IMG/VR virus record: IMGVR_UViG_3300033124_000732 | Source: a virus | Taxonomy: Duplodnaviria > Heunggongvirae > Uroviricota > Caudoviricetes | Direction: 5' to 3' (one strand) | DNA: 64,000 nucleotides | Shown here: piece by piece, positions 14,660 to 50,646 of the stretch | Layout of the letters: every line of letters starts with the position of its first letter | How positions within the stretch are numbered: the first letter of the stretch is position 1 | Translations under genes and position numbers: made by a program | Notes under the pieces: generated by a model | What the model was told of the DNA's origin: nothing | What the model saw: the letters and a program-made list of their open reading frames with translations, nothing else | Databases searched by the model: none

Positions 14660-15781
14660 TCAACTATTTTCGGTAAATTCTACAGGATTTTTAAAAGATT
14701 TAAACTGTTGTCCTGTAACTCTAGTGATATCAGCTAGTTCTTCTTCTAGTCGATGTTGGAATTCAGGTTGACAATATGGCTGATACTGATAATCTAATAA
14801 ATTTCTATAGCTGGTGCCCATGCGGTACAACAGGCGATTCTTTACATCGCCCAGTCTGCGATGCTGAGTGATTGAATTATCAAACAGCAACAAATCACCA
14901 TGTTGTGTTTTGTACCAATGATCGTACACATTATTTTCGGCAAACAGTTCAGTTTTGAGCTTGATCAACAATGCATCACTTTCCGGTTGGCTCATGCCCA
15001 CAAATCCTACCACTGTGTTTGGACTAAAATGCAAACCAGCAATTCCGCCGGGACTATTGATCCGCAACGGTAACTGATTGGGAGTTGGACAAAAGTTATG
15101 TTTGAACATGTGGTCTTGAACTAGATTCAATCCAGGATTGATTTTGCCTGGTTGGAATTCATGTTGGCAAACAAGCTCATCTAACTCACTGCGAAATGCT
15201 TCAGACTGATCTTGGTACCATCGAGCAGTGGTACTAAATCCGGTGCTACTGCCAATCACATGATCGATGGCCAACAAGCCCACGCCAGGAGTAAATGCTA
15301 GATGTCCAGATTCATTGCTGTGCCATAACAATTCTCCTTCAGCAAAAATTCCTAATCTACGACCTTGTTCATCTCGTTGTCCGCTAACTCGTTGAGCTTG
15401 TCCTGTACTAACTGGAGCACGAGTATAATCGCTTTCGGTAACAAATGACTGATCCTCAGGAGTTAGTGGATATACACCAGCCTTGAGATCTCTCCACATT
15501 TTATCAAATGCTTGATGTACTGGAAGATTGCTGTCCAGTTGTAGATTGTATTTTTTTAAAAATGTATAAGGACTAAGACTGTTACTTCTACCTAAAGCCA
15601 ACATCAATTCAGACCACCTATCTGGTGTAAGGTTGGTGCCTCTAAAAATTGTAACCAATGTGTCTAAGTGCAGTTTGCCATATACTGTTTGCCATTCTTC
15701 AATGCTGATATTTTCTAAATCAGCGCCGTCGACGAACACGCCGTAGTCACCTAAGCCGGGAATTTTTGTGATAGTTACCAT
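14660..15781 (-). CDS. TauD/TfdA-like Fe(II)/2-oxoglutarate dioxygenase (putative)
   Basis: 373 aa. The WHSNESGH...H pattern resembles the TauD-family HxD/E...H iron-binding site. Assignment from motif memory only. Confidence 0.45.
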   Translation of the reverse strand: MVTITKIPGLGDYGVFVDGADLENISIEEWQTVYGKLHLDTLVTIFRGTNLTPDRWSELMLALGRSNSLSPYTFLKKYNLQLDSNLPVHQAFDKMWRDLKAGVYPLTPEDQSFVTESDYTRAPVSTGQAQRVSGQRDEQGRRLGIFAEGELLWHSNESGHLAFTPGVGLLAIDHVIGSSTGFSTTARWYQDQSEAFRSELDELVCQHEFQPGKINPGLNLVQDHMFKHNFCPTPNQLPLRINSPGGIAGLHFSPNTVVGFVGMSQPESDALLIKLKTELFAENNVYDHWYKTQHGDLLLFDNSITQHRRLGDVKNRLLYRMGTSYRNLLDYQYQPYCQPEFQHRLEEELADITRVTGQQFKSFKNPVEFTENS

Positions 15782-18376: not shown

Positions 18377-18377
18377 G

Positions 18378-19563: not shown

Positions 19564-20712
19564 CTAGGTTCCTATATCATATGCACGACTGCTCAATACT
19601 TTAAATCCTTTTTTGATGTCTGCTGGATTTCTTTTTAAAAATACTGGAGTCTGATTCCACCGGTATTCTAATCCGGTCTGCCACGTGTGTTTGGCTATGT
19701 CATTGTCTGGTAACGAAAAGAACCAACTGTCTCTGTTACTAAAAATCAAGCTAGACGGCTTGAATTGATATGGTAGAGGCTTCCAGTTTGGATAGAGTGC
19801 AGTATGTATACCATTGGAGGTTACCCAGTAAATTTTGCCGTCGATAGACACTACAGGATTTCTATCATTGTAGATTGTCGACACAAACGGTGAATTAGGC
19901 CTAAGTTGTTTCATAAATTTTTTTAACACATGGGCTTGTTTAATGACCAATGTTGGCATGTCAGGAGTCCAATAAAACATTTCATCAAACAATCCAGGGA
20001 AGCCGTCAATTTGATTATGTGTTACTGTGGCGGCATCCAAAATGTCTCTGAACACCAAACTCCATTTTCCGTTGATACCTACTATCTTGGGTTTGTCAAT
20101 TCCGTGTATAAATCCCACTTTCTTGCCAGCGTTGATCATATCCATCCAGTGAGGTTGTGTTTTTACAACCAATGTTCTTGCATGGTAATTGGGATTCACG
20201 TATTGATTTACTTTATGTACCCAATCAAATTTATTTTGTTGGTTGGCAAAGTAGTCTATAGTGAGTTGACAAATATCAATCAGTGTGTGCCGAATCCATG
20301 GTTGAGATGTTTCTTGCAAATGTTGAATCTTGGGCACTGTGAGATTGAAAATTTCACCGTTGAGATAGTCGTTGGTGTCGCCAGTAGCAGCCACGTTAAT
20401 TAACCCAGCGGCTTCATCAAGTTTGATATTATTTTCTACAAATGTATTGAGAATATTGTCGCAATCCGAGCCTCCTGAATACCATAACACCAGATAATCA
20501 TAGGTATCTCTTAGCTGTTGAGCACGTTCACGGTACAGTTCAGACAGACTTTGTGTGGATGGTCGAGCCCAATCATAAGCACTGAATATTTCATCGTTGT
20601 AGTGCCAAGTTAGTGGTTGATTGATTTTTTCTGCAACCAATGCCGCGTCAAACTTGCTATAAAATTTTAAGTTACCAACGCGATAAAATCCAAACTTATC
20701 TTTATCTTGCAT
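19564..20712 (-). CDS. PP-loop ATP pyrophosphatase-family protein, paralog B (382 aa)
   Basis: LWYSGGSDCDNIL PP-loop and YRERAQQLRDTYDY. Shares motifs with paralog A (FYWTPD, GxDKPK). Confidence 0.7.
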   Translation of the reverse strand: MQDKDKFGFYRVGNLKFYSKFDAALVAEKINQPLTWHYNDEIFSAYDWARPSTQSLSELYRERAQQLRDTYDYLVLWYSGGSDCDNILNTFVENNIKLDEAAGLINVAATGDTNDYLNGEIFNLTVPKIQHLQETSQPWIRHTLIDICQLTIDYFANQQNKFDWVHKVNQYVNPNYHARTLVVKTQPHWMDMINAGKKVGFIHGIDKPKIVGINGKWSLVFRDILDAATVTHNQIDGFPGLFDEMFYWTPDMPTLVIKQAHVLKKFMKQLRPNSPFVSTIYNDRNPVVSIDGKIYWVTSNGIHTALYPNWKPLPYQFKPSSLIFSNRDSWFFSLPDNDIAKHTWQTGLEYRWNQTPVFLKRNPADIKKGFKVLSSRAYDIGT

Positions 20713-21643
20713 CTATGTTTGCTCGATTAAGTATCTTCTTGAACTTTCGAAACTCAATAGACAAAAAAGATCGTGGAATTTGTTTTCCAATACTCTGCAA
20801 GCCTGCGTCTTTCAATTGCTCTCGAACATCAGCTCGTTGCATTAATCGACGTAACGCTTCTCGAACTTGTGTGATTTCTACAGCAGGTGCTGAAGTATTA
20901 ACTACCAACACAAACCAATTGTAAAAATCATAATCGTTATTGCCAATGTCTGTCATACTGGGTAAGTTGGGAAAATCTGAATTACGCATGCGATCCACAC
21001 TTAGCAATGGTCGAAATAATTGAGTATCAATATAAGGTCGAACACTGGTTACAAAATCTGTAACTATATCAATGTGTCGACCTTGCAGATCAACAAGTGC
21101 TGGGCCTACGCCCTTGTATGGTACATGTGTGCTTGAACACTGCAAAGTTTCCATCACAATTGACGATGAAATGTGTGTGGCAGACCCAATGCCTGCGCTG
21201 CCGTATGCGATTGGTCTTCGGCGACATTCACGTTGAAGATCTTGAATGGTGTGTATACTGCTGGCAGCATTTACAACCAACAACATGGGAATGTGTCCAA
21301 GATATTCCAATGGAACAAAATCTGTTTCTAAATTGTAATTCACAGCTGATGCATTTACAATTGATGCAGTGACTACTGCATTTGGAGCCATGAGTATTTG
21401 TAATTTGTCAGACCGTGCTACCATAGATGCCGCAAGAGTACTGCCACCGCCGGGACGATAGCTCAACACAGGATTAAAATTATAATTGGCCAATTCTTCG
21501 CGCATGGGACCGATAAGGCTTACTGCAAGTCGGTCCGCAGTACCACCGGGTGCAAAAGGAACAACAAACTCAATGTTACGTTGAGCTTGTGCTACTGTAG
21601 CTAAAAAAACTAAAGCCAGAGCAAGTAATTTACTTTTGATCAT
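20702..21643 (-). CDS. Bug/TctC-family periplasmic binding protein (2 of 3)
   Basis: VVPFAPGGTADRLAR, YGSAGIGSATHIS and VPYKGVGPALVDLQGRHID match TctC/Bug signatures. Signal peptide MIKSKLLALALVFLATVAQAQ from the ATG at 21643; the ORF-track first codon at 21670 is TTG. Confidence 0.8.
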   Translation of the reverse strand: MIKSKLLALALVFLATVAQAQRNIEFVVPFAPGGTADRLAVSLIGPMREELANYNFNPVLSYRPGGGSTLAASMVARSDKLQILMAPNAVVTASIVNASAVNYNLETDFVPLEYLGHIPMLLVVNAASSIHTIQDLQRECRRRPIAYGSAGIGSATHISSSIVMETLQCSSTHVPYKGVGPALVDLQGRHIDIVTDFVTSVRPYIDTQLFRPLLSVDRMRNSDFPNLPSMTDIGNNDYDFYNWFVLVVNTSAPAVEITQVREALRRLMQRADVREQLKDAGLQSIGKQIPRSFLSIEFRKFKKILNRANIDAR

Positions 21644-21676
21644 AGTACTCTGGTTTGTTGTTGTTTTCAAATTGAA

Positions 21677-23308
21677 TCATGCTATTCCTGCACTGTGATA
21701 TCCGCGATGTATTGTACGTGAATCATCTAAGAATTCTTGCCAACGATCAGCGTATTTGACGCTTAACGCATGATTGGAAAACACTTCTCTAAGAATTTGG
21801 TTGACCACGCGAGGCGATACAGAACCACTATTATACAAGTTCAACAGTAGTTGTGTAAAGTATTTTTTTTCCCAAAGTGGTGGAATACTTTTGTTAAACT
21901 CATCAAACTCTTCCAAAGTTACTCCAAACCATGATAGCATTTTGTAAGTAATTTGAGTGAAGTTAAAATACGCTATGTCCAGCTCGTTAAAACTAAAACT
22001 ACCACTGATCATGCTGTGCTTGTTATTTTTGATTTCTCGTGTGCGTATTTGAAATTTTTTCATATACTCGGGATCATACACCGCTGGCGAATTGGGTATG
22101 ATGATCCAGGTGTAAAACTCCAGGCACAAATTCAATTGGTATGCCTCACGCAACAAATGCTGCCAAGTTTTGCGTGTTTGTCCAGGTAGACCTTTGATTC
22201 CTTCTAACGAAAATGTTCGATCAGGAAACCGTGACTTCAAATGGCGGATGTATGTTTTGTGTTCTTCCCAAGAAATATCTGGACGGTCTATGTTGGCCAG
22301 GATTGTGGGATCTATGTCTTGTACTGCAAATTTGCCACCTTCGCACACTCCTGCGTCTATCCAAATTTCTAAAATTTCGTATGCTCGGTCTTTTTTGTTT
22401 TTGCTGAGGTTGGGGCTTTGTGTTTTGATTCCACGTGGCGGCAAAATTTCAGCCATGAGCCGAGCAATTTCTACATCCACTGGCCATTGTCCAAAGTTGG
22501 CATCACTAATGTGTAGTTGTGTAATGCCTAACTCAGCAATCATTTCCAGTTCCGCTCTGTAATCTACCTTGCGTTTGACTGTGGTTGGCCCAAGCCCCGA
22601 AGTCCAGTCACAGAAACTGCAACTGTAGGGACACCCTCTTGAAGTTTCGTAACTGAGCTCAAACTCATATCCATGATATTCTGGATCACCTACCATTTGT
22701 TTTAGTAGATGTTGACTTTCTAAATATGGACTATACTCGGTATTTTTGATGTAGGCTGCTGGAGCCTTTTGCAGTTGATCGTTTTTGACCCACAGCAAGT
22801 TATGAGTGTTTAGAATATTTAAACTTCTGTCATAAAAATGATGACACAATATGTCGTGGAATGCTTGCTCGCCATCAGAGAACACAGCGTAGTCTGCATC
22901 TTCGTAGTCTTGTCTCCAGTCATACGTGCCATGTGCTTCAATACTAGGGCCGCCCACAATCACAATCACATCATGATTGATTTGACTTTTGAGATTGCGT
23001 GTGAGATTGATAATTGTTGGCCGGTTCCAGTTGTAAACACTAAAACATATCACATTGCACTTGTGTTGATTCACATAGTCCACAACTTGTTGTTGTGTCC
23101 AGGTGTTTACACTGATCTTGTTCCAGGTCAGATCTTCGTACAGTGTGGGATTTTTTATTTTAATGTAACTATCAAGATAGCACGGAACAGTACTGAGATA
23201 CACGCTATAGTCATATTCAAATTCTTGGTCCAATAAATTTGTTTCAGCACGATATCTTGCACCGTGAACTACACTTGGACAACTGAAGAATATTTGAATC
23301 TTTGACAT
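21677..23308 (-). CDS. radical SAM enzyme with N-terminal cobalamin-binding-like domain (543 aa)
   Basis: CxxxCxxC in ETSRGCPYSCSFCDW. N-terminal Rossmann-like B12-binding region (VIVIVGGPSIEAHG). Confidence 0.75.
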   Translation of the reverse strand: MSKIQIFFSCPSVVHGARYRAETNLLDQEFEYDYSVYLSTVPCYLDSYIKIKNPTLYEDLTWNKISVNTWTQQQVVDYVNQHKCNVICFSVYNWNRPTIINLTRNLKSQINHDVIVIVGGPSIEAHGTYDWRQDYEDADYAVFSDGEQAFHDILCHHFYDRSLNILNTHNLLWVKNDQLQKAPAAYIKNTEYSPYLESQHLLKQMVGDPEYHGYEFELSYETSRGCPYSCSFCDWTSGLGPTTVKRKVDYRAELEMIAELGITQLHISDANFGQWPVDVEIARLMAEILPPRGIKTQSPNLSKNKKDRAYEILEIWIDAGVCEGGKFAVQDIDPTILANIDRPDISWEEHKTYIRHLKSRFPDRTFSLEGIKGLPGQTRKTWQHLLREAYQLNLCLEFYTWIIIPNSPAVYDPEYMKKFQIRTREIKNNKHSMISGSFSFNELDIAYFNFTQITYKMLSWFGVTLEEFDEFNKSIPPLWEKKYFTQLLLNLYNSGSVSPRVVNQILREVFSNHALSVKYADRWQEFLDDSRTIHRGYHSAGIA

Positions 23309-24268
23309 TTATTTTGGTAACAGATGCTGATATTTTTTATACAGTCGTTCTCGACTGTCATAGTATGTGTTGTAAAACTGTCTAGCTCGAACTAAGTCAC
23401 CGCCTAATGGCACATTGCCGCGACGCACTAAAGAGGCAGCAGTGTCTGAATCAACAACTGCTTGGTGCCATGCCCAGTTGAGATATTCAAGTACATGAAC
23501 AGGTGTGCCACGAGGCGCAAACAAGCCATTGTAATTTACAGTAACAACTCCATTGTAGATTTCTGCTAATGCAGGAATGTTAGGATGTTGTGCAGAGCGT
23601 GTGCGACTGCCTACTGCTAGTACTTTGACCTTTTTAGCGTCTATCAATCCTTGTGCATCTCCAATGGCTGATAACACAAATGCTGTTTCGTTAGCAGCCA
23701 CTGATCGTAAAGTCTCTGCTTGACTTTTGTACGCCACTGGTTGAATATCTTGCACCCGCGCAGTTTCTAAGAACGCCTCAGTCATCAGTGTTTGAATGCC
23801 GCCCACTGTGGCGTAACTCAATCGTTTTTGTTGTTGAAGATACGCAACAAACTCTTGCACAGTACTAGCTGGTGTGTCTGCACCAACAATCAACGCAAGG
23901 CTGCTTTCTATGCTGGCCGACACTGGTACTAATTGATCTCTTGATGGTGCATTTGGTAACCCTTGAATGGCGTTCACCATGGCTGGACCAGTTTCAAATT
24001 GCCCTAGGGTCAGCCCATTGGGTTCTGATTGCGTCAACGCCTGAGTACCAATGGTGCCACTGGCACCTGGACGATTGGATACTATGATGTTTACCCCAGT
24101 GATTTGTTCCACAGTCTTGGCCAATTGCCTTGCGGTAATATCGCTGTTGCCTCCAGGGCCGTACGGCACAATAACAGTGATGGTCTTGCCTGTCAGTTCA
24201 GCAGGAATGTCTCGTGCGTGTGTGGTCACGCACAGTGATAATAGCAGTAGTGTTAGTAGTTTCTTCAT
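23309..24268 (-). CDS. Bug/TctC-family periplasmic binding protein (3 of 3)
   Basis: Signal peptide MKKLLTLLLLSLCVTTHA. IVPYGPGGNSDITAR motif. 319 aa. Confidence 0.75.
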   Translation of the reverse strand: MKKLLTLLLLSLCVTTHARDIPAELTGKTITVIVPYGPGGNSDITARQLAKTVEQITGVNIIVSNRPGASGTIGTQALTQSEPNGLTLGQFETGPAMVNAIQGLPNAPSRDQLVPVSASIESSLALIVGADTPASTVQEFVAYLQQQKRLSYATVGGIQTLMTEAFLETARVQDIQPVAYKSQAETLRSVAANETAFVLSAIGDAQGLIDAKKVKVLAVGSRTRSAQHPNIPALAEIYNGVVTVNYNGLFAPRGTPVHVLEYLNWAWHQAVVDSDTAASLVRRGNVPLGGDLVRARQFYNTYYDSRERLYKKYQHLLPK

Positions 24269-24269
24269 A

Positions 24270-24965
24270 TTAATATTTCAATTCAAATTGTCCACCAGCT
24301 GAGAACCAGCGGTGCCAGCGATCAGTGGTCATTCCACTCAAACGCAATAATGGTCTGGACCAGTAGCCGTTGTTAAACGTACCATGCACTTCCGTGGGCC
24401 AATTCCAAGCATATACATCACCACGCCGCCAATTGTCCAGCAAGCCGTGTTCAGTTGTAAAGCCTTGGCCAATGCGCCAATCTTCCAGCATGATCAACAC
24501 TCTTGTGGCTGTTTGAGGATCTTGCGCAAATCGCTGTCGATCTTCATCAGTAATTGCAGCCTGATAATAGTGTTCAATCTCGCTGACTTCTCCCAGGTAA
24601 CTGGTAGACAGATCATCTCTGTGTGGCATGACCATTTGTCCTGAGCGTTGCACTTGTACTCTGCCCAGTGTCAGTTTTAATCCAAGGCGTTCTCCAATGC
24701 GTTCAACCACACTGTGATCAGTTATGGCCCACTTCTCAAAGTCCAGTACATCTGCTCCAAATACATCTGTGTCTGTGTTGGTATAGCCATACTTGGCAGC
24801 CATGTCGGCAGCGCATTTGCTACGTACACGAACCCGTAATGCATGAGATGCAGGTGCTTGTTTCACTGTGTGTACATTTTCTGGCTTGGTTCGTAATTCT
24901 GACCATTTGAGATAATCGGGAATGCCAGAAATGTTACCGACGCAACGAAAGGTATTATTTACCAT
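24270..24965 (-). CDS. hypothetical protein, possible cupin/2OG-oxygenase-like (231 aa)
   Basis: MPHRDD...H pattern suggests an HxD...H metal site. Low-confidence call. Confidence 0.4.
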   Translation of the reverse strand: MVNNTFRCVGNISGIPDYLKWSELRTKPENVHTVKQAPASHALRVRVRSKCAADMAAKYGYTNTDTDVFGADVLDFEKWAITDHSVVERIGERLGLKLTLGRVQVQRSGQMVMPHRDDLSTSYLGEVSEIEHYYQAAITDEDRQRFAQDPQTATRVLIMLEDWRIGQGFTTEHGLLDNWRRGDVYAWNWPTEVHGTFNNGYWSRPLLRLSGMTTDRWHRWFSAGGQFELKY

Positions 24966-26119
24966 GGTATGGTTCCTATTGGGTGGAAATTGTCAAAGAC
25001 AGTCATATCACTTTTTACTGATTTCTTGTCATTGAATGCGATTGCAGGATCTAATTGGCGTATTGTATTTATTGCACATGACGCCCAACTTTGATAAAAT
25101 CGTTCTTTCTGGAACTGTTGGGTAAGTTTGTCAAAGTGATTGTTGGCAAAAATACCGCTTTTGTCTACTTGTATTTTGTTAAAGTCCCAGTGTGGGTAGC
25201 AAATTTTCTTTATGGTATGGTCAAACCATTTTTTGCGTTGTTGCCATTCTGCGCCTTTAAGATCCAGCATGGCTTGTGTGCCTGTGGGATCTAACAGTAG
25301 ACTATCCCAAACCAAGTGTGCTTGTTCAGTTACGATAGCAGGAAAGTCTGGTGTCCAGTAGAAGTATTCAATGTTGCGATATTCGTTGCCTTGTGCGTGT
25401 GTTTTAAAAATAGCCGCATTGTCAACAAATCGAAATCCGTACTGATTACCACGTCGAGCTGGATTGACTTTGTCCATGCCGGTGATCACAGCAACTCTTT
25501 GTCCGCGATCCACAAACTGTTGTAGATATCGTGTGATGTATCTGTAGCGTTTGATTGACGTGTATACTGTGGGCACAGAAATAACAGTCATGCTATCTTC
25601 AGCATCTTCTTCTGTTTGCCCAGCAAAGGTATCGCTTACGTGTACATGTATTTCGGGATTGGTAACTGCTAGTTCGTCTAATGCAGGTTTGATCACACGG
25701 AACCATTCTACAGGCATGTTCTCTGGATTGGTTGCATCACTGATTACATAGTTGCTTTTTTCAACAAGGCTAAGTGGCCAGTCACACCACACTTCATCCA
25801 AGTGTATTTTGTTTTGTTGAAAAACTTTTAAGATGTTGTCACTGTCAGCACCGCCACTATATCCTAAAATTAAGTAATCGTATCGGTCGCGAAGTTGCAA
25901 AGCACGTTGTTTGTACAATTCCATCAGTGGAATGCCTAGTCTAGGCATCTGTGCTTGTTGAGCAAACACTGCATGATTGAAATCCCAAGACACATGTTGA
26001 TGTGTACAACTGGCTTCTAGCAAGGCGTTGAGTTTTTTGTCAAATAGTTTTGTTCCTACTTGATAATAGCCTTGTTTGCTGTGTGCCGGATCAAGACTGC
26101 TGTCTTCAAACCTCGTCAT
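24959..26119 (-). CDS. PP-loop ATP pyrophosphatase-family protein, paralog C (386 aa)
   Basis: LGYSGGADSDNIL PP-loop and YKQRALQLRDRYDY. Shares FYWTPDFP and other blocks with paralogs A and B. Confidence 0.7.
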   Translation of the reverse strand: MTRFEDSSLDPAHSKQGYYQVGTKLFDKKLNALLEASCTHQHVSWDFNHAVFAQQAQMPRLGIPLMELYKQRALQLRDRYDYLILGYSGGADSDNILKVFQQNKIHLDEVWCDWPLSLVEKSNYVISDATNPENMPVEWFRVIKPALDELAVTNPEIHVHVSDTFAGQTEEDAEDSMTVISVPTVYTSIKRYRYITRYLQQFVDRGQRVAVITGMDKVNPARRGNQYGFRFVDNAAIFKTHAQGNEYRNIEYFYWTPDFPAIVTEQAHLVWDSLLLDPTGTQAMLDLKGAEWQQRKKWFDHTIKKICYPHWDFNKIQVDKSGIFANNHFDKLTQQFQKERFYQSWASCAINTIRQLDPAIAFNDKKSVKSDMTVFDNFHPIGTIPW

Positions 26120-26725: not shown

Positions 26726-26743
26726 TTTGTGTTATTTACTGCA

Positions 26744-41023: not shown

Positions 41024-42057
41024 TTTAACACTCCTTGATATGTTTGATTCAGCCAGCGACCAATTGGCTCTGCTTGGTCACTCAGCTTGGTGAGTTCATA
41101 CTTGCCACAGAATTTAAGAAAGTGTGCGCCCACCATGCCCGTGTCTTTAGCACTGACTTGTTCACTGATCACAGCATCCACAGTATCTTTCACTTCTTGT
41201 GGTTGTGCAGTGAGGTCAATCAGTGTGACATTACGTTCGTAGTCGTCAAGCACCTTGTGTTCTTTTTCTTCGTGGTCAGTCCAACGTTGCAACATGAGAT
41301 TGTTCCAATTGTAGCCTTTTTTGTTGCGATCTTCAAATGCTTCTGTAATGCCCACACGATTCTTTGTGCCTTTAACTGGTGCACCAGGGTATGCCGAGAA
41401 CACATTGTCGCCGGGATCACCGCGTACACATTTCAAGAACAACACCCACTTCTGATAGTCAGTTGGAGCCACAAAGTCTTTATCAGCTTTGCCTACTTTG
41501 ATCTTGGAATTGCTTTCAATTGTAAAGCTCAATTTGTTGCCTTTGGCATCTGTTACGCCATTAACACTGAACAGGTGATCGTTTATGCCATTGTACAATT
41601 GCACATTTGGTGCAACCAACTGAACGAAGTCTGAATCACTGCTAACGATAATATGTTCATCTTGGGGGTGTAGTGCAATCCAGCGGCCTATGATATCGTC
41701 CGCTTCTGCTGTTGCGCAACGGATCACGCTACAATTTGTTTTCTCAGACAAGTATTTAGTCAGTTCATCATAGGTTTCCCAAAACAACTTGTCCTCTTCT
41801 GCTTCAGTTTCGCTCATGGCACCACGTGCCACAGCACGATTGGCTTTGTAGGGTTTGTAGTGGTCTTTGCGCCAGCTGCGTCCTTCCAATGCAAAAACCA
41901 CATGGTCTACACCAAAACGTCTAGCTACTTTATTAGCACTCATCATGGTCAAGTGCAGTGCAAAGCCTAATTTAGTCCATGTGTCGCTAGCCCTGTGCGC
42001 CGAATGGCGGGCACGGAAGAACATGTTGGCAGTATCAATCAGTAGATATTTCATCAA
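41020..42057 (-). CDS. 5'-3' exonuclease / flap endonuclease (T4 RNase H-like, FEN family)
   Basis: YLLIDTANMFFRA N-terminal block, EADDIIG and SSDSDFVQL acidic clusters typical of PIN-like 5' nucleases. Confidence 0.75.
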   Translation of the reverse strand: MMKYLLIDTANMFFRARHSAHRASDTWTKLGFALHLTMMSANKVARRFGVDHVVFALEGRSWRKDHYKPYKANRAVARGAMSETEAEEDKLFWETYDELTKYLSEKTNCSVIRCATAEADDIIGRWIALHPQDEHIIVSSDSDFVQLVAPNVQLYNGINDHLFSVNGVTDAKGNKLSFTIESNSKIKVGKADKDFVAPTDYQKWVLFLKCVRGDPGDNVFSAYPGAPVKGTKNRVGITEAFEDRNKKGYNWNNLMLQRWTDHEEKEHKVLDDYERNVTLIDLTAQPQEVKDTVDAVISEQVSAKDTGMVGAHFLKFCGKYELTKLSDQAEPIGRWLNQTYQGVLK

Positions 42058-42763
42058 ATCGGTCCAGAAGTTTGTGTTGCTTTAAGTATTGTAACACATA
42101 TTCCGACCAAAATCTATGACCATTGGCTCCAAAGTGATAACTTTTGGGATTCACATGTTCGAATCCGTTGTTTTTTAGTATGGCATTCCAACTGTGTTCT
42201 CTTGAGTAAGGTTGGATGTAGTGATTTTGCCAATCTCTTTGATTTGGCATATCACTGAATGTGCTGTTACCGCTGTAGAAAAGATGCCGCACATTAAGGT
42301 CTTTTAGTCGACAATGCAGATGCCAGATTTTATTGTGCCACTCATCTGTTTTTTGATTCCAATTCACATCCAAAATGTACTGACGATATCTAGCTTCAAG
42401 TTCTGGTGGCACCATGTCTACACCACTGGCATTTACTTGATAGTGCTTGCCTTCGAACACCCATTCTTCTCGTTCCCATGTGGTCCATTGAATCACCATC
42501 ACAGTATCATACAAGCGGCTATAATTGTTGTGAATCCAATCTGTAGTAGTGCGCAGTATACGATCATTGCTGGCTGCTGTTTCGGCATCACAGTAAAATT
42601 CAGTGTTGAGCAATCGACTCAAATTCTTGCCCCAGCTGGCTTCCAAGTTGATGGGATGAGGGCGGCGGTCAATGCCGTATCGGCCATCATCCACAGCAAA
42701 CGCATCAGGAACCACTGCTTCTGCAGCCGCTGTGTGACTGCATCCATTTACATATAATATCAT
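42035..42763 (-). CDS. GCSH-motif protein, paralog of 5858..6448
   Basis: N-terminal YVNGCSHTAA, 242 aa. Confidence 0.55.
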   Translation of the reverse strand: MILYVNGCSHTAAAEAVVPDAFAVDDGRYGIDRRPHPINLEASWGKNLSRLLNTEFYCDAETAASNDRILRTTTDWIHNNYSRLYDTVMVIQWTTWEREEWVFEGKHYQVNASGVDMVPPELEARYRQYILDVNWNQKTDEWHNKIWHLHCRLKDLNVRHLFYSGNSTFSDMPNQRDWQNHYIQPYSREHSWNAILKNNGFEHVNPKSYHFGANGHRFWSEYVLQYLKQHKLLDRFDEISTD

Positions 42764-43236
42764 CGTTGTAGTAATACTTTTTCTGTTTCGGCAGCCACCA
42801 CACGCTTGCGCAGGCTTGAACTTGAGAATGAATGATCTCTGCTGTTAAACACATGCTCAATGTGTTGCCCAGCACCTTCATTGCGACCAGTAAAGTTAGT
42901 ATCTTCATATTCTCGACCAAGTATGCGTACATCGATTGGCAAGGTTAGTATCAAGTCAATTAGGTCTTGTTCGGTAGTGTACACAACAATTTCGTCTACA
43001 AATCTACATGCACTCAATTGTATCTGGCGTTCCACAATGCTTTGCACAGGGGGATTTTTAATTCCCGGTCGGTCAATGCTGGCATCTGTTTGCAGGCCTA
43101 CAATTAGATAATCGCAATGATTTTTTGCTTCAGCCAACATGGCAATGTGTCCTGCATGTAGCATGTCAAATTGACTGAATGTGATGCCGATTTTTTTACC
43201 TTCGGCTTTGAGGTCTTTAATGTGATTGAATATCAT
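42760..43236 (-). CDS. cytidylyltransferase-like nucleotidyltransferase (HIGH-motif; TagD/RfaE-domain-II-like)
   Basis: FSQFDMLHAGHIAMLAEA (HxGH motif), 158 aa. Confidence 0.6.
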   Translation of the reverse strand: MIFNHIKDLKAEGKKIGITFSQFDMLHAGHIAMLAEAKNHCDYLIVGLQTDASIDRPGIKNPPVQSIVERQIQLSACRFVDEIVVYTTEQDLIDLILTLPIDVRILGREYEDTNFTGRNEGAGQHIEHVFNSRDHSFSSSSLRKRVVAAETEKVLLQR

Positions 43237-43628: not shown

Positions 43629-44729
43629 TTAGAATAAATCCACAGTTTCCCAAGGCAAATAGTCTTTGCCAAAATGCCCGTAGTTAGTTGTTGTACTATA
43701 GATAGGGCGGAACAAGTCAAAACGTTCAATAATACCCTTGGGTGTCAAGTCAACGTTATCCTGAATCCATTTAGTTAGATCACGTCCTTGTTGTGCGTCA
43801 GCTGTTTCCACGTAGAAACTCATGGGTTGTGCAAGTCCAATTGCGTAACTGATCTGCACTGTAGCCCACGGTGCTTGACCACTTGCCACAATGTTCTTGG
43901 CAATCCAGCGTGTTAAGTAGGCAGCACTGCGATCCACTTTAGTAGGATCTTTGCCGCTGAAGGCTCCGCCACCATGAGGACTATACCCGCCGTAAGTGTC
44001 AACAATAATCTTGCGGCCAGTAAGCCCAGTATCGCCATCAGGCCCACCAATAACAAATCTACCAGTAGGGTTAATATAAAATTCAGTTTTGTCATCAACA
44101 TATTTTTCAGGAAGAGTACCACGGATTACACTTTCAACAGACATTCGAACTTGGTCGATGTCCACGGACTCATGATGCTGAGTTGAGCAAACTACTTTGG
44201 CAATGCGTTTGGGAGTACCATTGTCGTTGTATTCAAACGTTACTTGACTTTTGGCGTCTGGTCCTAACCACGGCAGTGCTAAACTTTTTCGTACACGAGT
44301 CAAAGTTTCTACAATACGATGGCTCCAATAGATTGCACTGGGCATATGATTATCAGTTTCGTTGCAGGCATAACCAAACATCAAGCCCTGATCGCCTGCG
44401 CCAAACGTATCTGTACCCAGTGCAATATCTGCACTTTGCCCGTGTAACAAGTTGGTAATTTCTGCCGTACGCCAATCAAAACCTGACTGTTCGTAACCCA
44501 CATCCTTGATAACTTTTCTCACTGCTGATTCAACTTCCTCAGCATGTAAAACGCCTTTGTATTCTCCTGCCACCACCACACGATTGGTAGTAACCAACGT
44601 TTCGCATGCGCAACGTAGAGCGGGATCCTGTTTAGCCATCACAATGTCTAGCACTGCATCGCTAATAGCATCCGCGATTTTGTCCGGATGTCCTTCTGAC
44701 ACACTTTCACTTGTAAATAGATAACTCAT
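43629..44729 (-). CDS. metK: S-adenosylmethionine synthetase
   Basis: SEGHPDKIAD signature. GAGDQG and DxGxTGRKII blocks. 366 aa, full length. Confidence 0.9.
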   Translation of the reverse strand: MSYLFTSESVSEGHPDKIADAISDAVLDIVMAKQDPALRCACETLVTTNRVVVAGEYKGVLHAEEVESAVRKVIKDVGYEQSGFDWRTAEITNLLHGQSADIALGTDTFGAGDQGLMFGYACNETDNHMPSAIYWSHRIVETLTRVRKSLALPWLGPDAKSQVTFEYNDNGTPKRIAKVVCSTQHHESVDIDQVRMSVESVIRGTLPEKYVDDKTEFYINPTGRFVIGGPDGDTGLTGRKIIVDTYGGYSPHGGGAFSGKDPTKVDRSAAYLTRWIAKNIVASGQAPWATVQISYAIGLAQPMSFYVETADAQQGRDLTKWIQDNVDLTPKGIIERFDLFRPIYSTTTNYGHFGKDYLPWETVDLF

Positions 44730-44986: not shown

Positions 44987-45859
44987 TTATTTGCCCCAGC
45001 CATTGCCCCAGAGATCCACATGCAATCTTGGGCTATAGTTATAACCACGAGCCAGTGCCCAGTCAGCTACATTCACTCGGTTGCGTTCGTATGGAGTGAC
45101 CACACCGCCTTGTGGCATCACATAGGTAACACCACGGAAACCTGCTTCACGATATGCAGCCACAGCACGATCAACTTCTTCAAAGTGTGCCAGTGTTTCT
45201 ACCACAAATTTTAAATATACTGTGCCATGCATTTGATAGTCTGCCACAATCTCGGGCTTGATAGCATCCGACCACGATTCGCCTGACGCTGATAGCTTGG
45301 GACTTACTGAGAAAGTAATTTCTCGCGTGGGCACGGCCCCTAGTGCAGGGCGACGCCATTCGTGCAAAAATGTTCGAAATGCTGGCTGTAACTTTTGAGT
45401 GCCATTGGTTTCGAATGTGATGTTCTTTAAGTCACCCATACTGCCTTGCGACAGCAGTTCTTCGTATCCACGCTGCCAACCCAACAGCGGTTCACCACCT
45501 GTGATCACAAGATGCACATCATTGCCGTTGTCTTGTTGCCAGTGATGATTGGGTGTAAGAACCAACATCTTTTCAATCAGTTCATCATGTGTGAGTGTGT
45601 GACTTAGTTCCTTAAATGCAGGATGCCACGAAGCGTAGCTATCACATCCGGTGTTCACAAGCGGCAGTTCAAGAAAATCCTTGTACAGGTGTATGTTCTT
45701 TGCCACTTGGTCTGCTTCGGTAGACTGTACGCCCGGAGCGCAGCCAAAGCCTGAGCAAGTGAAGTTGCATCCGTATGTGCGTAGGAACACTGAAGGAACA
45801 CCAACAAAGCGTCCTTCGCCCTGTGCAGAATAAAATAACTCACTAACTTTTAATTTCAT
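44987..45859 (-). CDS. queE: 7-carboxy-7-deazaguanine synthase QueE (radical SAM)
   Basis: ELFYSAQGEGRFVGVPSVFLRTYGCNFTC matches the QueE N-terminal consensus (E.F.S.QGEG...G.P..F.R..GCN..C). Cys cluster C31/C35/C40. Confidence 0.75.
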   Translation of the reverse strand: MKLKVSELFYSAQGEGRFVGVPSVFLRTYGCNFTCSGFGCAPGVQSTEADQVAKNIHLYKDFLELPLVNTGCDSYASWHPAFKELSHTLTHDELIEKMLVLTPNHHWQQDNGNDVHLVITGGEPLLGWQRGYEELLSQGSMGDLKNITFETNGTQKLQPAFRTFLHEWRRPALGAVPTREITFSVSPKLSASGESWSDAIKPEIVADYQMHGTVYLKFVVETLAHFEEVDRAVAAYREAGFRGVTYVMPQGGVVTPYERNRVNVADWALARGYNYSPRLHVDLWGNGWGK

Positions 45860-46629
45860 ATTTTTGTTGCTTTAACCAGTAGATGCCAACCCAAGTATTC
45901 GCGAACTGCTTGACGCATTTCTTCGCTCATTGCCGCAAACCAAGGTTCCAGTTCATAGATACCTTGCTTGTACTTAGGTACATTATACATGAAACAATGC
46001 GCTTGTCTAATGCGTCCGATATGGAATTTGCCCTCTAGCAACTGATAGACTTCTTCTTTTGTGTAGGCTTTGGCATACGGACATCCGGCTTGTGCTTCGT
46101 ATTGGTCCAGACCTTTTTGGATCATGGCATACTTCCAACTGTCACGAGCATACACTAGCATTTTGAACTCGCCACCGTCCACGGTCAAACTGTGTATGTT
46201 TTCAATCACACGATCAATGTCTGGATAGTGATGTAACACACCACAACTGTAAACCAAATCAAATTTGCCCAAGTGTGACAAGTCATCATCGCCGCTACCT
46301 TGAATGAATTGACCTTCCAGTCCCAAAACTTCAAATCGTTTCCGGGCCAATGCAATGCTTTCACTGCTGAGATCGATACCAACATACTCGGCACCATGCT
46401 TGGCAAACTCAGCTGCATCGGCACCAATGCCACATCCAATTTCTAACACACGTTTGCCAGCATACAAATGAAACTGTGCTAGATCTTTGAGATGTGGTTC
46501 AACAAAGTAGCGTTTTTCGCTATTCTCGTTAAAGAATTGTTCAGTACCAACTTCACTGGCGCTGTGGTTGATGTTACAGGGCTGGCGATCCCAGTACTGC
46601 ACAATCTTGTCTATTAGTTCATTGCTCAA
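45856..46629 (-). CDS. class I SAM-dependent methyltransferase
   Basis: VLEIGCGIGADAAEF (motif I) and downstream DLVYSCGVLHH (motif II region). Confidence 0.7.
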   Translation of the reverse strand: MSNELIDKIVQYWDRQPCNINHSASEVGTEQFFNENSEKRYFVEPHLKDLAQFHLYAGKRVLEIGCGIGADAAEFAKHGAEYVGIDLSSESIALARKRFEVLGLEGQFIQGSGDDDLSHLGKFDLVYSCGVLHHYPDIDRVIENIHSLTVDGGEFKMLVYARDSWKYAMIQKGLDQYEAQAGCPYAKAYTKEEVYQLLEGKFHIGRIRQAHCFMYNVPKYKQGIYELEPWFAAMSEEMRQAVREYLGWHLLVKATKI

Positions 46630-47476
46630 AGGGACTGTCCTTCCATTGTCTTAATCGTTTGTGTGGATCTTGCAGGACCATTCTGGCCCAGATGTTTGGA
46701 TTTTTACCGGTCATTGAATCTCTAAACCACGTGGTATCGCGGCCTATGCTGTCAAGATAGTCTGCAATTTTTTCAGTTTCTTCAACCCTGCGTTTGCGCC
46801 AGGTAATGTGATTGAAATCTCTAGGATCATTGCCGGGCATGTTTTCCAACATGATACGTTCTTTGAATGTTTCATCCAAGTTCTCGCCAGTAAGATCATA
46901 GCGTTCATGGTGTACCATTACAGGAATTGTTTTCACAATATCCAACATCCAAGCCACTTGGCTGGTCCAGGCATCGTTGATTTGATGCGGACTCAAATGG
47001 CCAGTAATTTCCACCCACTTCTTTGGCAGGATAGGAAAGATAGCATAAGGGTGTTCGTGATTGGTTTCGGCACGGAGCAAATTGAATTCTTGCCCGTTGT
47101 CTCGAATCACCTGATCCCAATCCTGTGTTTTCATCACAGCATCGTCATTCCAAAAGAACAACCAAGAGCCTTGACTGTGCTTGGCCAACTCGTTAAGGTA
47201 CTCGTTTAGTCGCATGTACCCTAATCTTTCAAACTGTATGGCGCTGTATTCTACACCAAGGTCATCAAGATAAGGTTGTACGACATCCACAAAGTGTTTG
47301 ATGTTTTCACTATCATCATTATCAAATGCCAACATCACTTCTATTCGACTGGGGTCTTTGGCCCGGTCAAGTAGAGTGCGTAGGCATTGTTCTAGTGGTT
47401 TTGGTCTGCCACGAGTGGGCAATAAAATACTGATGTCGATGGGATTGTCAAGGGGTAATAAGTTCTCTGTTGTCAT
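46619..47476 (-). CDS. glycosyltransferase family 2-like protein
   Basis: ISILLPTRGRP...MLAFDNDDSE, a GT-A DxD-containing N-terminal fold. 285 aa. Confidence 0.6.
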   Translation of the reverse strand: MTTENLLPLDNPIDISILLPTRGRPKPLEQCLRTLLDRAKDPSRIEVMLAFDNDDSENIKHFVDVVQPYLDDLGVEYSAIQFERLGYMRLNEYLNELAKHSQGSWLFFWNDDAVMKTQDWDQVIRDNGQEFNLLRAETNHEHPYAIFPILPKKWVEITGHLSPHQINDAWTSQVAWMLDIVKTIPVMVHHERYDLTGENLDETFKERIMLENMPGNDPRDFNHITWRKRRVEETEKIADYLDSIGRDTTWFRDSMTGKNPNIWARMVLQDPHKRLRQWKDSPFEQ

Positions 47477-49421
47477 ATTCTATTTCAGGTAAGTTGGCTG
47501 AATTAGTTTTTGTTATTGTTGTTTTTCCAAAATTCCGCTTGCGAGCAAAATACATGTTCTCTAAGAACCGATCCATGCTCATGGTTTTATCTTCCACGCT
47601 GTCAAATTTGTACAAGCATGGTGTGTTGATGTCAGCATCGTCCAGTAGATATCCAAGAAAGTCATAGTCAAACTTTTGTTGAATTGGCAATGCTGGTAAA
47701 TCTTTGTAATCAATCACATAGTTTCTCTGAAACTGCAACAACTGATTTAGTATGTTGCTGTCAATAGTATACGTGGTTCTTACAAAGTTGTCAATGATAT
47801 CGAACACATGATTGATCTTTTGTTGCTGTTGCATATACAAAGTGGTTCGATGCACAAGATTCCATCCAAACACTTCGATGTTGCCAATTCGAGGATGATT
47901 GATACGACCGTCTGTGGTCCAGTTTCTAAAGTAACTGCGTGTCTCATCAAACTGTTGTTGAAACCATGCATCGCTTTCAATATACTTGTACAAACTGTCG
48001 TAGAACTCACTGTAGTCAATGTCATGAGCTTTGGCCAAGTATCTAGCAATGTACGTGGTCAACCCGTTGATGTGAAAAGTTTGAATAAAACTGTTCCATA
48101 CCAGTGTGTCCAACATCATTTCTCGTGGAATGTCTTTGGTTCCTACCACAACATCCACACACTCGTCCATGTCTACATCACCATAGCTGCCACTCATGTA
48201 GTCATACACTGGCACTGAATCCAGCTTCCACATTCGTTTTTGCAAGAGATTCATCTCGGCATTTTCCAACAACTGCGCTTGGAGAATGTTCACACCAGTA
48301 TGGTTACCTGCACGGAAGATTTGCCAAAAAGCATTTTTCCAAGTTTCCACAGTTTCACCTGGCAAGCCCAAGATAACTTCTGTGTACACAGGAATATTGT
48401 TGCGATCACACAAAGCAAAGATTTCGTCAATCTTGTGTTGATCAAGATTTCTACGCTTGATGTTTTCCAACACATCGTGGTCCATGCTTTGCACACTCAC
48501 AGTAAGGCCTTGACCAAAGTTGGGGCTTTCGTCGATCAATTTCTTTACAATGCCCACTACTTCGTTCTTTTGATTCTTGGCCCATGTCATAGAAAATGAC
48601 GCCAGCTTGGCCCATTGCTTTTGTACTTCAATCAACTTGTCCACAATCATGTTGTCACGTTCAATGAACATGCCAAAGTTGGCATCTGTGATTGTGACAA
48701 ATCCGCAATGGCGACCAATCCATTCTAATTCATGGAACACTCTAGTGAGTTCAAATTTCTTGACCTTGTTGTAAGTGAGACTGCCCCAGTCACAAAAGGT
48801 ACACTGATAAGGGCAACCGCGATTGGTTTCCAATGTAGCATTCCAAATTACATCAGGATTTTCAGCTATGATTCGATCAAAGATGCCGGCAAGGTAAGGA
48901 CTGGGGATTTGATCTAGATTGTCGATTCTGGCACAATCTCCAGTGTCTACTAGCCCTGCTGGTGTGTTAATCAACAAGCCAGGAATGTGCGTAAAGTCTG
49001 TGTCAAAATCTTCTAGGATGCGTTTGAATGTGATCTCGCCTTCCATCTTGCTCACAAGATCCATGAAAGGTTCTTTCACAAACAATTCAGGATCCGTAAT
49101 AGCAGGCTCGGGTCCACCAAATATAATTTTTACTTTGGGATTGAGTTCTTTGATTCGACGTGCTAGTTTGTAGTTGTATCTGTGATTCCATACATAGGCA
49201 CTAAACGCCACAATGTCATTGTGTTGCAATCTTGCGGCTGCTTCTTCAATGGGCTCTCTACGCCAAATTAATTCATCAATTTCCCAGGCATTTTTAATAT
49301 GCTCAAACCCAAAGGCGTAACTCAAAATCACACCTGCAGAATACGGCAAGTAGTAGGCATTGAATTCTTTAGGCCCTTGTTGAAAGTTGGGCTGTACAAA
49401 ACTTATTGTTTTTTTGTTCAT
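47448..49421 (-). CDS. cobalamin-binding-domain radical SAM enzyme (657 aa)
   Basis: N-terminal B12-binding-like Rossmann segment (KVKIIFGGPEP). CxxxCxxC in TNRGCPYQCTFCDWGS. Confidence 0.75.
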   Translation of the reverse strand: MNKKTISFVQPNFQQGPKEFNAYYLPYSAGVILSYAFGFEHIKNAWEIDELIWRREPIEEAAARLQHNDIVAFSAYVWNHRYNYKLARRIKELNPKVKIIFGGPEPAITDPELFVKEPFMDLVSKMEGEITFKRILEDFDTDFTHIPGLLINTPAGLVDTGDCARIDNLDQIPSPYLAGIFDRIIAENPDVIWNATLETNRGCPYQCTFCDWGSLTYNKVKKFELTRVFHELEWIGRHCGFVTITDANFGMFIERDNMIVDKLIEVQKQWAKLASFSMTWAKNQKNEVVGIVKKLIDESPNFGQGLTVSVQSMDHDVLENIKRRNLDQHKIDEIFALCDRNNIPVYTEVILGLPGETVETWKNAFWQIFRAGNHTGVNILQAQLLENAEMNLLQKRMWKLDSVPVYDYMSGSYGDVDMDECVDVVVGTKDIPREMMLDTLVWNSFIQTFHINGLTTYIARYLAKAHDIDYSEFYDSLYKYIESDAWFQQQFDETRSYFRNWTTDGRINHPRIGNIEVFGWNLVHRTTLYMQQQQKINHVFDIIDNFVRTTYTIDSNILNQLLQFQRNYVIDYKDLPALPIQQKFDYDFLGYLLDDADINTPCLYKFDSVEDKTMSMDRFLENMYFARKRNFGKTTITKTNSANLPEIEYDNRELITP

Positions 49422-50148: not shown

Positions 50149-50646
50149 TTAAACGAACAGATCTTCCATCCACTCGCGATGGCCTTCTCGGAAAGCCATG
50201 TTGCTCTGTGTTTCACGCACTTCTACACGATAGCACCAGAGACGCTCTGCTTCACCCGGTCCCCACAGGTCCGGAATGTAAACACCGTTCACATACTTGT
50301 ACAGCATGTCTGCTAGGCCTTCACAGCCCAGCCGTGGTAGGATGGTGAGTTTGGCCATTTTCTTCTCTTGCAAGAGCTTGTATGTTTCCAGCTCTGGATC
50401 ATCTGCAGATACTAGTAAGGTATGATCAAATTGATCTTCCAATTGCTTCTTGAGTTCTTTGAGACCACCATAATCGGCTGCCCAATTGCGTACATCCAGG
50501 TTGTCTGTGCCAAAGTAAAACTTCATCGAAAAACTGTAACCATGAATTAGATTGCAGTGGCTGTCAGCCCTCCACTGTCTATACGCACATGGAAATGCGT
50601 CATGGTACTCTTTGGTTGAAGTAAATTTGTATGTTATCGGTTGCAT
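50149..50646 (-). CDS. queD: 6-carboxy-5,6,7,8-tetrahydropterin synthase QueD
   Basis: CxxxHGH zinc motif (SHCNLIHGYSF). AGGAGG RBS 7 nt upstream of the ATG at 50646. The ORF track's extension to 50814 is rejected. Confidence 0.75.
   Translation of the reverse strand: MQPITYKFTSTKEYHDAFPCAYRQWRADSHCNLIHGYSFSMKFYFGTDNLDVRNWAADYGGLKELKKQLEDQFDHTLLVSADDPELETYKLLQEKKMAKLTILPRLGCEGLADMLYKYVNGVYIPDLWGPGEAERLWCYRVEVRETQSNMAFREGHREWMEDLFV

Follow-up and report, generated by a model that had tools for sequence, protein, structure and literature searches.

The DNA analysed here, which we call the window, is a stretch of 64,000 nucleotides (nt) from a tailed phage of the Caudoviricetes (IMG/VR virus record IMGVR_UViG_3300033124_000732). 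It encodes two enzymes, here named rSAM1 and rSAM2, in each of which an N-terminal cobalamin (B12)-binding segment is followed by the CxxxCxxC motif of radical S-adenosylmethionine (SAM) enzymes. The original prediction, made from the letters alone, had reported both open reading frames (ORFs) with this layout, and they are present exactly as it described them. It further proposed that the two are class B radical SAM enzymes of the kind that methylate unactivated carbons, and that together, next to MetK and SAM methyltransferases, they alkylate a nucleobase or a sugar in an unusual way. The features of the two genes, all on the minus strand, are:

21677..23308, rSAM1, 543 amino acids (aa), a TokK/CysS-like class B radical SAM enzyme (Pfam, PDB sequence match, AlphaFold model)
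22850..23098, rSAM1 residues 71-153, B12-binding domain (Pfam PF02310)
22145..22651, rSAM1 residues 220-388, radical SAM core (Pfam Radical_SAM)
about 22604-22633, rSAM1 cluster motif C226-x3-C230-x2-C233-D-W235
23027-23029, rSAM1 Trp94, aligned with TokK Trp76 ('SVYNWN' against 'SCYVWN' in TokK)
47448..49421, rSAM2, 657 aa, a TokK/CysS/KedN5-like class B radical SAM enzyme (Pfam, NCBIfam KedN5, TokK match)
49017..49256, rSAM2 residues 56-135, B12-binding domain (Pfam PF02310)
48333..48827, rSAM2 residues 199-363, radical SAM core (Pfam Radical_SAM)
48786-48815, rSAM2 cluster motif C203-x3-C207-x2-C210-D-W212
49188-49190, rSAM2 Trp78, aligned with TokK Trp76

Both domains score above the Pfam gathering thresholds (32.1 bits for B12-binding, PF02310, and 29.5 bits for Radical_SAM) in both proteins, with 43.1 and 40.4 bits in rSAM1 and 43.4 and 39.1 bits in rSAM2. 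The hidden Markov model assignment that the original prediction had suggested as a check thus bears it out and, per Pfam, the N-terminal domain is of the cobalamin-binding Rossmann type. Among the NCBIfam models, the best match of both proteins is the KedN5 family of methylcobalamin-dependent C-methyltransferases (NF033712), rSAM1 scoring 106 and rSAM2 218 bits against a curated cutoff of 700; the match is confined to the N-terminal portion of the model and ends near position 365 of 624.

The solved structures point to the same branch. When the PDB is searched with the sequence of rSAM2, TokK is found with an E-value (E) of 3e-77 over residues 23-481 and CysS with E 2e-43, and the third match (9ccb, E 4e-6) is weak. 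For rSAM1, the same search reports TokK with E 3e-32 and CysS with E 1e-18. The AlphaFold model of rSAM1, with a predicted local distance difference test (pLDDT) score of 90.1, superposes on TokK and CysS over about 550-571 alignment columns with template modelling (TM) scores of 0.72-0.74 and E of about 1e-28 to 5e-30, and it does so across all three domains, cobalamin-bound structures included. OxsB, MgmA, TsrM, AprD4 and MiaB are much weaker structural matches to the model. The large C-terminal helical domain, which closes the substrate channel in this branch, also aligns, in rSAM1 as a model on TokK and CysS, and in rSAM2 as a sequence alignment that extends to TokK residue 483. Both genes encode class B radical SAM enzymes that are conserved and full-length and belong to the TokK/ThnK/CysS/KedN5 branch, with only about 21% identity to each other. 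Methylation of unactivated carbons, as originally proposed, is what their closest characterised relatives, TokK and CysS, carry out.

The active sites tell us about chemistry and substrate separately. The cysteines of the cluster motif (C226, C230 and C233 in rSAM1; C203, C207 and C210 in rSAM2) are invariant in both family alignments. Invariant as well are the equivalents of two tryptophans that the TokK and CysS papers describe as specific to TokK, ThnK and CysS. One of them (TokK W76, CysS W75) sits on the loop after strand 3, 3.8 Å under the cobalt, and corresponds to W94 of rSAM1 and W78 of rSAM2. The other (TokK W215) is an active-site residue directly after the cluster motif, and corresponds to W235 of rSAM1 ('CSFCDW') and W212 of rSAM2 ('CTFCDW'). 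The GGP motif is invariant in both phage families too. On the other hand, the substrate-contact position has changed. TokK binds the C3 carboxylate of the carbapenam with Arg280 and Tyr652; the Arg280 position, which is that of the substrate-contact residue Trp271 in CysS, is Ser in rSAM1 and rSAM2, and Ser or Thr in the phage proteins, while Tyr652 lies outside the aligned region. With the signature residues kept and the substrate-contact residue changed, the chemistry is probably conserved and the substrate is probably different.

As judged from TokK and CysS, a first SAM would methylate cob(I)alamin, and a second would be cleaved at the cluster to give a 5'-deoxyadenosyl radical that abstracts a hydrogen atom from an unactivated sp3 carbon. 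The substrate radical would then take the methyl group from methylcobalamin, and the cycle might be repeated. We favor the reading that the two enzymes perform such radical C-methylation in two separate and unrelated tailoring cassettes, and we hold it with confidence and doubt in about equal parts. The enzyme class as such is known. For its substrates here, for the cassettes and for its occurrence in phages, there is no earlier description.

The known enzymes resemble the phage proteins in part. TokK and ThnK, the carbapenem C6 methylases of Streptomyces, share with them the three-domain layout, the tryptophan below the cobalt and a Cys-Asp-Trp sequence after the cluster motif, and are the top solved relatives of both; TokK is about 20% identical to rSAM1. 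However, we see no carbapenem genes (such as CarB/ThnE) in the window, and nothing that would suggest a pantetheinylated substrate such as that of TokK. CysS is the second-best PDB match of both phage proteins. In the cystobactamid pathway, CysF makes a methoxy group that CysS extends to ethoxy, isopropoxy and butoxy groups, and the ordinary SAM methyltransferase encoded beside rSAM2 is reminiscent of that pair. The differences from CysS and KedN5 are scores far below the KedN5 cutoff, a gate residue (Trp271) that is not conserved, and no nonribosomal peptide synthetase or polyketide synthase context.

That the two enzymes serve one pathway, as the original prediction implied, does not hold, as the genes are 24 kb apart and rSAM1 lies in an unrelated cassette. 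The presence of MetK and SAM methyltransferases nearby is true of rSAM2 only, and even there MetK stands beside the cassette in only three of 80 related loci. The alkylation of a nucleobase or sugar remains plausible for rSAM2, which shares an operon with a glycosyltransferase, a methyltransferase and QueE and is flanked by QueD, FolE and nucleotide-sugar genes, and nothing supports it for rSAM1. The neighbors of rSAM2 are given below, all on the minus strand, with their frequency among 80 IMG/VR loci with enough flank:

42035..43236, DUF6071 and a cytidylyltransferase-like protein; DUF6071 in 47/60 loci
43629..44729, MetK (SAM synthetase); 3/80 loci only
44987..45859, phage-type QueE, a 7-carboxy-7-deazaguanine (CDG) synthase-like radical SAM protein (phrog_2076, 178 bits; QueE N-terminal motif); 56/72 loci
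45856..46629, class I SAM methyltransferase (MT), whose top models are carboxyl/hydroxyl O-methyltransferases; 52/78 loci
46619..47476, family 2 glycosyltransferase (GT2; Pfam GT2 and phrog_14945), with a 29-nt overlap with the rSAM2 stop; 61/78 loci
49505..50131, Vut_1/YhhQ-type transporter (queuosine-precursor transporter family); 19/65 loci
50149..50814, QueD/PTPS, the true start of which is probably an internal Met near 50649; 43/61 loci
50730..51125, HIT-family protein; 40/59 loci
51122..51955, 277-aa protein with the PP-loop motif SGGLDS; only 6/50 loci
53685..54377, FolE (GTP cyclohydrolase I); 29/47 loci
54430..55963, short DegT-type aminotransferase and NAD-dependent sugar epimerase/dehydratase; 31/44 and 31/41 loci

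The genes rSAM2, GT2, MT and QueE overlap successively by 29, 11 and 4 nt, and as read from the sequence, rSAM2 heads a translationally coupled four-gene unit in that order. Downstream of the unit are MetK, the cytidylyltransferase-like protein, DUF6071 and a 5'-3' exonuclease; upstream are YhhQ/Vut_1, QueD, HIT, the 277-aa PP-loop protein, FolE, DegT and the epimerase/dehydratase. MetK, though not a conserved neighbor, is a plausible source of SAM for the cassette. In a sub-lineage with only 53% identity, the order is QueD, GT2, rSAM2, an unknown gene and QueE, so that the GT2/rSAM2 pair is inverted and still held between QueD and QueE.

KedN5, in kedarcidin biosynthesis, extends an O-methyl group to O-ethyl or isopropyl. 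The rSAM2 cassette would be a glycoconjugate tailoring module in which GT2 adds a sugar, MT a first methyl, and rSAM2 one or more carbon-bound methyls, either by extending the methyl or methoxy group placed by MT, in the manner of KedN5 and CysS, or by acting on a sugar carbon. MT resembles O-methyltransferase-type models (BchM, Mtf2, UbiG, BioC). In this lineage, the acceptor would most likely be a 7-deazaguanine compound derived from CDG. FolE, QueD and QueE, the set for the synthesis of the deazaguanine core, are all in the window, and QueE is 37-45% identical to that of Vibrio phage nt-1 and Synechococcus phage BUCT-ZZ01. Huimycin is an example of such a product: HuiC adds a methyl group to an oxygen of preQ0, HuiG afterwards attaches the sugar, and the cluster has no enzyme for insertion into nucleic acid. 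The likeness is at the family level only: FolE, QueD and QueE accompany genes for a SAM methyltransferase and a glycosyltransferase, with no nucleic-acid transglycosylase found nearby. The differences are that the phage has no recognizable QueC, and that huimycin comes from an actinomycete and involves no B12 radical SAM step. A more specific version of our reading, in which rSAM2, GT2, MT and QueE together with QueD, FolE, HIT and YhhQ make a new glycosylated 7-deazaguanine base or nucleoside with a radical-installed ethyl, isopropyl or C-methyl group, as a free nucleoside-analogue metabolite or as a new hypermodified base of phage DNA or of tRNA, is one that we put forward as rather unlikely in itself.

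The surroundings of rSAM1, a run of closely spaced genes, hold no nucleotide or sugar gene. They are:

13704-14585, Gram-negative porin, in the rSAM1 region
14660..15781, minus, TauD/TfdA-family 2-oxoglutarate dioxygenase, which co-occurs with rSAM1 in two related loci (our L003 and L004)
16378-17322, minus, DctP binding protein of the tripartite ATP-independent periplasmic (TRAP) type
17453-18460, minus, third TctC-like protein (signal peptide at an internal start)
18378-19562, minus, PP-loop paralog of 394 aa, and 19564-20712, minus, PP-loop paralog of 382 aa; both 29-32% identical to the 386-aa protein below, with the motif SGGxDS
20702..21670, minus, second TctC-family binding protein (signal peptide), on the downstream side of rSAM1 across a 6-nt gap
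23309..24268, minus, TctC-family periplasmic binding protein with signal peptide, upstream and abutting the rSAM1 start (0-nt gap)
24270..24965, minus, unknown 231-aa protein with an HRDD...H pattern
24959..26119, minus, PP-loop synthetase paralog of 386 aa, with an AsnB/beta-lactam-synthetase-like fold and no glutaminase domain

All TctC copies carry signal peptides. The 231-aa protein is possibly 2-oxoglutarate-oxygenase-like, to go by its residue pattern, and one relative of the PP-loop family adjoins a 2OG-FeII_Oxy_3 gene. In every rSAM1 relative inspected, with 65-68% or 45% identity, TctC stands directly upstream (loci L003, L004 and L006) and PP-loop paralogs are nearby. In the 45% case, PP-loop, TauD, TctC and rSAM1 form a four-gene island between unrelated genes of the opposite strand on a 362-kb contig. 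A core of four genes conserved in so distant a relative argues for a functional unit, and rSAM1 appears to belong to a mobile core of PP-loop synthetase, TauD, TctC and itself. In this unit, a small carboxylate-bearing metabolite would be captured by the periplasmic binding proteins; rSAM1 would methylate it, and its adenylation or amidation would fall to the AsnB-like enzymes.

The PP-loop proteins match no Pfam, NCBIfam or PHROG model; their identity to the synthetase domains of AsnB, beta-lactam synthetase and CarA is about 9%, they lack a glutaminase domain, and Pfam Asn_synthase does not match them. The companion dioxygenase is TfdA/TauD-like and not like CarC or clavaminate synthase, so any likeness to the carbapenem enzymes is confined to the fold. 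About 300 metagenomic relatives of the PP-loop family (~390 aa) are found on large phage contigs, and the 277-aa protein of the rSAM2 region (51122-51955) shares with that family only the PP-loop stretch.

Several points weigh against radical C-methylation in two tailoring cassettes. For the enzymes, the cutoff of the KedN5 model lies well above both scores; cobalamin binding and methyl transfer are predictions from homology; a B12-like domain is by itself not proof of them, as the example of AprD4 teaches; and, with Ser or Thr at the substrate-contact position, the substrate is not readable from the homologs. For the rSAM2 cassette, members of the rSAM2 family at 50-76% identity occur in clusters without any 7-deazaguanine gene, so the link to QueD and QueE may be lineage synteny; moreover, an ancestral pair of GT2 and radical SAM enzyme common to phage and Clostridia was considered and rejected, as the GT2 proteins have no detectable relationship. 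For the rSAM1 cassette, we know of no citable precedent for a cytoplasmic iron-sulfur (Fe-S) enzyme coupled to periplasmic binding proteins; and with the porin, DctP and a transfer-messenger RNA (tmRNA) also in the region, its genes may be an island of unconnected acquisitions from hosts.

For rSAM2, the main alternative is a pure glycan pathway. In this scenario, rSAM2, GT2 and MT would methylate a carbon or an oxygen of a sugar meant for a surface polysaccharide, the host envelope or a virion glycan, and the deazaguanine genes would be independent and merely share the operon. The clusters without QueD and QueE speak for it, as their genes include an epimerase, DegT, additional B12 radical SAM paralogs, a radical SAM gene of the twitch type and many unknown paralogs. 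The nearest cellular relatives of rSAM2 (26-35% identity; Clostridia, Nitrosopumilales and Saccharibacteria) have Epimerase, GDP_Man_Dehyd, GT2, Polysacc_synt_2 and RmlD as their commonest neighbor families. With sugar genes beside it in phages and cells alike, sugar chemistry is the common denominator of the rSAM2 family, and the deazaguanine association is peculiar to this phage lineage. Also in the window are a cytidylyltransferase, an asparagine synthase, DegT and the SGNH-like DUF6071. Finally, HpnJ is the second-best NCBIfam model for rSAM2, with 80 bits. HpnJ, a B12-domain radical SAM enzyme of hopanoid biosynthesis, reworks the sugar attached by the GT2 enzyme HpnI, so that there too the gene of a GT2 accompanies that of a radical SAM enzyme with a B12 domain; the match to HpnJ is much weaker than those to TokK and KedN5, though, and no hopanoid genes are present. 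On the other hand, the rSAM2-GT2 pair lies between QueD and QueE in two sub-lineages of differing gene order, and QueE overlaps the MT stop codon. We regard a pure glycan pathway as possible, with the balance of opinion on the doubtful side.

For rSAM1, the rival is that its neighborhood is an island of independent auxiliary genes for uptake (porin, TctC and DctP) and sulfur scavenging (TauD), with no functional tie to rSAM1. In its favor, a porin, DctP, three TctC-like proteins, the tmRNA and TauD stand in one region; TauD is closest to the scavenging enzymes TfdA, TauD and alkylsulfatase; the PP-loop family is also found elsewhere without rSAM1; and distant rSAM1 relatives lie between IscU and IscA without any of the cassette genes. 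The core of PP-loop, TauD, TctC and rSAM1, however, is found again, its genes overlapping, in a phage with only 45-52% identity, where the flanks are unrelated and on the opposite strand. We consider an island of unconnected genes less likely than not, much as for the pure glycan pathway, and favor a functional unit around rSAM1.

A third alternative takes the rSAM2 cassette to make a new hypermodified 7-deazaguanine in phage DNA as a defense against restriction, with rSAM2, MT and GT2 decorating the CDG-derived base. QueE is indeed of the type of phages with proven 7-deazaguanine DNA (nt-1, phi-Grn1, phi-ST2 and Cellulophaga phages), and Cellulophaga phage phiST, with 7-deazaguanine in its DNA, has this same set of FolE, QueD and QueE and no QueC. 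Some known 7-deazaguanine systems likewise do without QueC, and the 277-aa PP-loop protein, which is found in few relatives, is a possible QueC replacement. With the Dpd-type systems of phages, the window shares FolE, QueD and the phage-type QueE, as well as a YhhQ homolog like that of some such phages; DpdA1, DpdA2 and QueC, in contrast, were not found here, and GT2, MT and a B12 radical SAM enzyme belong to no described phage 7-deazaguanine system. The eight known phage derivatives do not need a glycosyltransferase or a B12 enzyme. No Pfam or PHROG match to a tRNA-guanine transglycosylase (TGT) or DpdA was seen among the larger ORFs scanned, many ORFs below about 200 aa not being part of that scan. 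A tblastn search with the DpdA2 of nt-1, to the exclusion of DpdA3 and DpdA4, reported nothing in the window or in about 250 related loci (the gene with about 10 kb on either side). This search did detect an unannotated homolog in phage BUCT-ZZ01. In nt-1 itself, QueE is far from DpdA2, so the absence of DpdA near the rSAM2 cassette is weak evidence; the window is only part of a genome of probably 200-335 kb. With no QueC and no DpdA or TGT match in these searches, modification of a DNA base is only a possibility here, and we judge it an improbable one; for hypermodification of either DNA or tRNA, no insertion enzyme was found.

The BUCT-ZZ01 homolog is an observation in its own right. In this Synechococcus phage (ON615601.1; L251:13108-14358), a 'hypothetical protein' beside FolE is a DpdA2 homolog, with 33% identity to nt-1 DpdA2 and E 2e-43. 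The same cluster has a xanthine-guanine phosphoribosyltransferase between QueE and QueD.

It is less probable still that the B12-like domains are vestigial or serve chemistry other than methyl transfer, such as the dehydration of AprD4, the ring contraction of OxsB and HpnJ or the cyclization of BchE. The Pfam B12-binding match spans only profile columns ~40-120, AprD4, OxsB and TsrM are among the structural matches, and the NCBIfam HpnJ and BchE models do match, more weakly than KedN5. The structure search nonetheless separates TokK and CysS (E 5e-30) from the non-methylases (1e-11 to 1e-15), and both signature tryptophans of TokK and CysS and the GGP motif are invariant. Weakest of all, and in our view very unlikely, is that the deazaguanine genes act with GT2, MT and rSAM2 on queuosine-family tRNAs to give a decorated queuosine (Q) derivative in phage or host tRNA: the window does encode 30 tRNAs, among them all four with GUN anticodons (His, Asn, Tyr and Asp), the cassette does include a YhhQ-type precursor transporter, and glycosylated queuosines are known in animals, but we saw no Tgt, QueA, QueF, QueG or QueH in the window, Hutinet et al. 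found no viral genes specific to Q, and no precedent is known for a C-methylated queuosine.

How common are such enzymes in phages? A megablast comparison of both rSAM regions with 50,697 GenBank phages reports no match; by tblastn against the GenBank phages, rSAM2 has two weak matches in gut phages and rSAM1 none, and neither enzyme is carried by an isolate phage in GenBank. PHROGs has no family for either protein, and we found nothing on these genes in the literature on B12 radical SAM enzymes in phages and on TctC in phages. The picture in IMG/VR is very different. A motif scan with the rSAM1-family alignment matches at least 599 stretches, with 562 confirmed among the matches listed. Identical or near-identical copies of rSAM2 occur in IMG/VR contigs, and its relatives lie on contigs of 226-335 kb. 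The source annotations of the homologs ('hypothetical', 'YgiQ', 'MiaB') are uninformative. With more than 600 IMG/VR stretches encoding them, TokK-like enzymes are a common and unannotated gene family of uncultured phages.

Distant relatives of rSAM1 define a further setting. We examined 84 loci, 80 of them from the IMG/VR motif scan and the other four being loci of rSAM1 relatives on contigs from metagenomes or metagenome-assembled genomes (MAGs). In most of these the B12 enzyme is 28-36% identical to rSAM1, and it mostly lies between IscU (59/84 loci) and IscA (54/84), without the genes of the rSAM1 cassette and on what are apparently contigs of small phages. Examples are found in loci L170-L249, such as L213:831-1208 and L177:9680-10006. 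Downstream in these loci are a protein of about 238 aa, provisionally nuclease-like from its sequence, and a tail-fiber-like protein.

Cobalamin-dependent radical SAM methylases have so far been studied almost only in the antibiotic, cofactor and lipid pathways of cells. In phages, B12 radical SAM genes now appear in at least three conserved settings: the operon of 7-deazaguanine and sugar genes, the periplasmic binding proteins with the AsnB-like PP-loop family, and IscU/IscA. Should nucleic-acid bases or nucleoside-like metabolites prove to be the substrates, the known range of phage DNA and RNA modification or small-molecule chemistry would widen. Replication of such phages would then depend on the vitamin B12 and Fe-S supply of the host, with ecological weight in B12-limited waters; the source of this large phage is freshwater. 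A tailored 7-deazaguanine, if that is the product, would bring a cobalamin-dependent step into deazapurine chemistry for the first time and give a very abundant phage family of B12 radical SAM enzymes its first assigned function.

A few further observations touch the rSAM2 region. DUF6071 (42035-42763, minus strand) has a conserved 'NGDSHT' start and conserved Ser/Asn/Arg and His positions, and looks like an SGNH/GDSL hydrolase. Profile searches of the PDB gave no match for DUF6071, for a conserved but unknown protein of 417 aa, or for the proteins of 277 and 231 aa. An aminotransferase-fold protein at 51945-52868 (minus strand), present in only a few close relatives, has as its top NCBIfam model, weakly, the CobD threonine-phosphate decarboxylase of cobalamin biosynthesis (37.6 bits against a cutoff of 290). 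We searched the window for cobalamin, SAM and preQ1 riboswitches and found none. Counting rSAM1, rSAM2 and QueE, the window has five radical SAM genes; the other two, also on the minus strand, are of the twitch-domain type and the SPASM type, the latter with the SPASM match ahead of the core (38671-39696 and 59924-60916). Relatives of the twitch-type gene recur beside rSAM2-family genes in other phages. In MAGs of gut Clostridia/Acutalibacteraceae (L097-L116), TokK-like B12 radical SAM paralogs of about 640 aa stand in tandem arrays of 3-5 genes, preceded by a GT2 of 240-275 aa, which looks like an uncharacterised cellular system.

Of the remaining features, the uptake genes are unusually rich for a phage, with a porin, a TRAP DctP and three TctC-type proteins, all with signal peptides. 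Between TauD and DctP lies a permuted two-piece tmRNA (15760-16187, minus strand; RF01850 108.8 bits, RF04321 119.4 bits; tag ANDEQFALAA). It is of the betaproteobacterial type, in keeping with the TctC/Bug-type binding proteins, which hints at a betaproteobacterial host. The GC content gives no sign of recent transfer. The window comes from a large phage. It carries the 5'-3' exonuclease and the C-terminal half of a T4-type DNA polymerase. This family B polymerase ORF (62630-63946, minus strand) matches only positions 439-852 of the 856 of phrog_262 (T4 gp43-type); a split polymerase and a 5' part located past the end of the window are both possible. The 30 tRNA genes stand in three minus-strand blocks (2286-9076, 12828-12983 and 26640-26897), with those of the queuosine family at 6639-6712 (His), 7580-7655 (Asn), 7696-7788 (Tyr) and 12828-12902 (Asp). 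At the edge of the tRNA array is a GOLLD RNA (RF02032; 9175-9639, minus strand), which scores 203.8 bits (threshold 150); a tRNA-like match falls within it, at 9506-9576.

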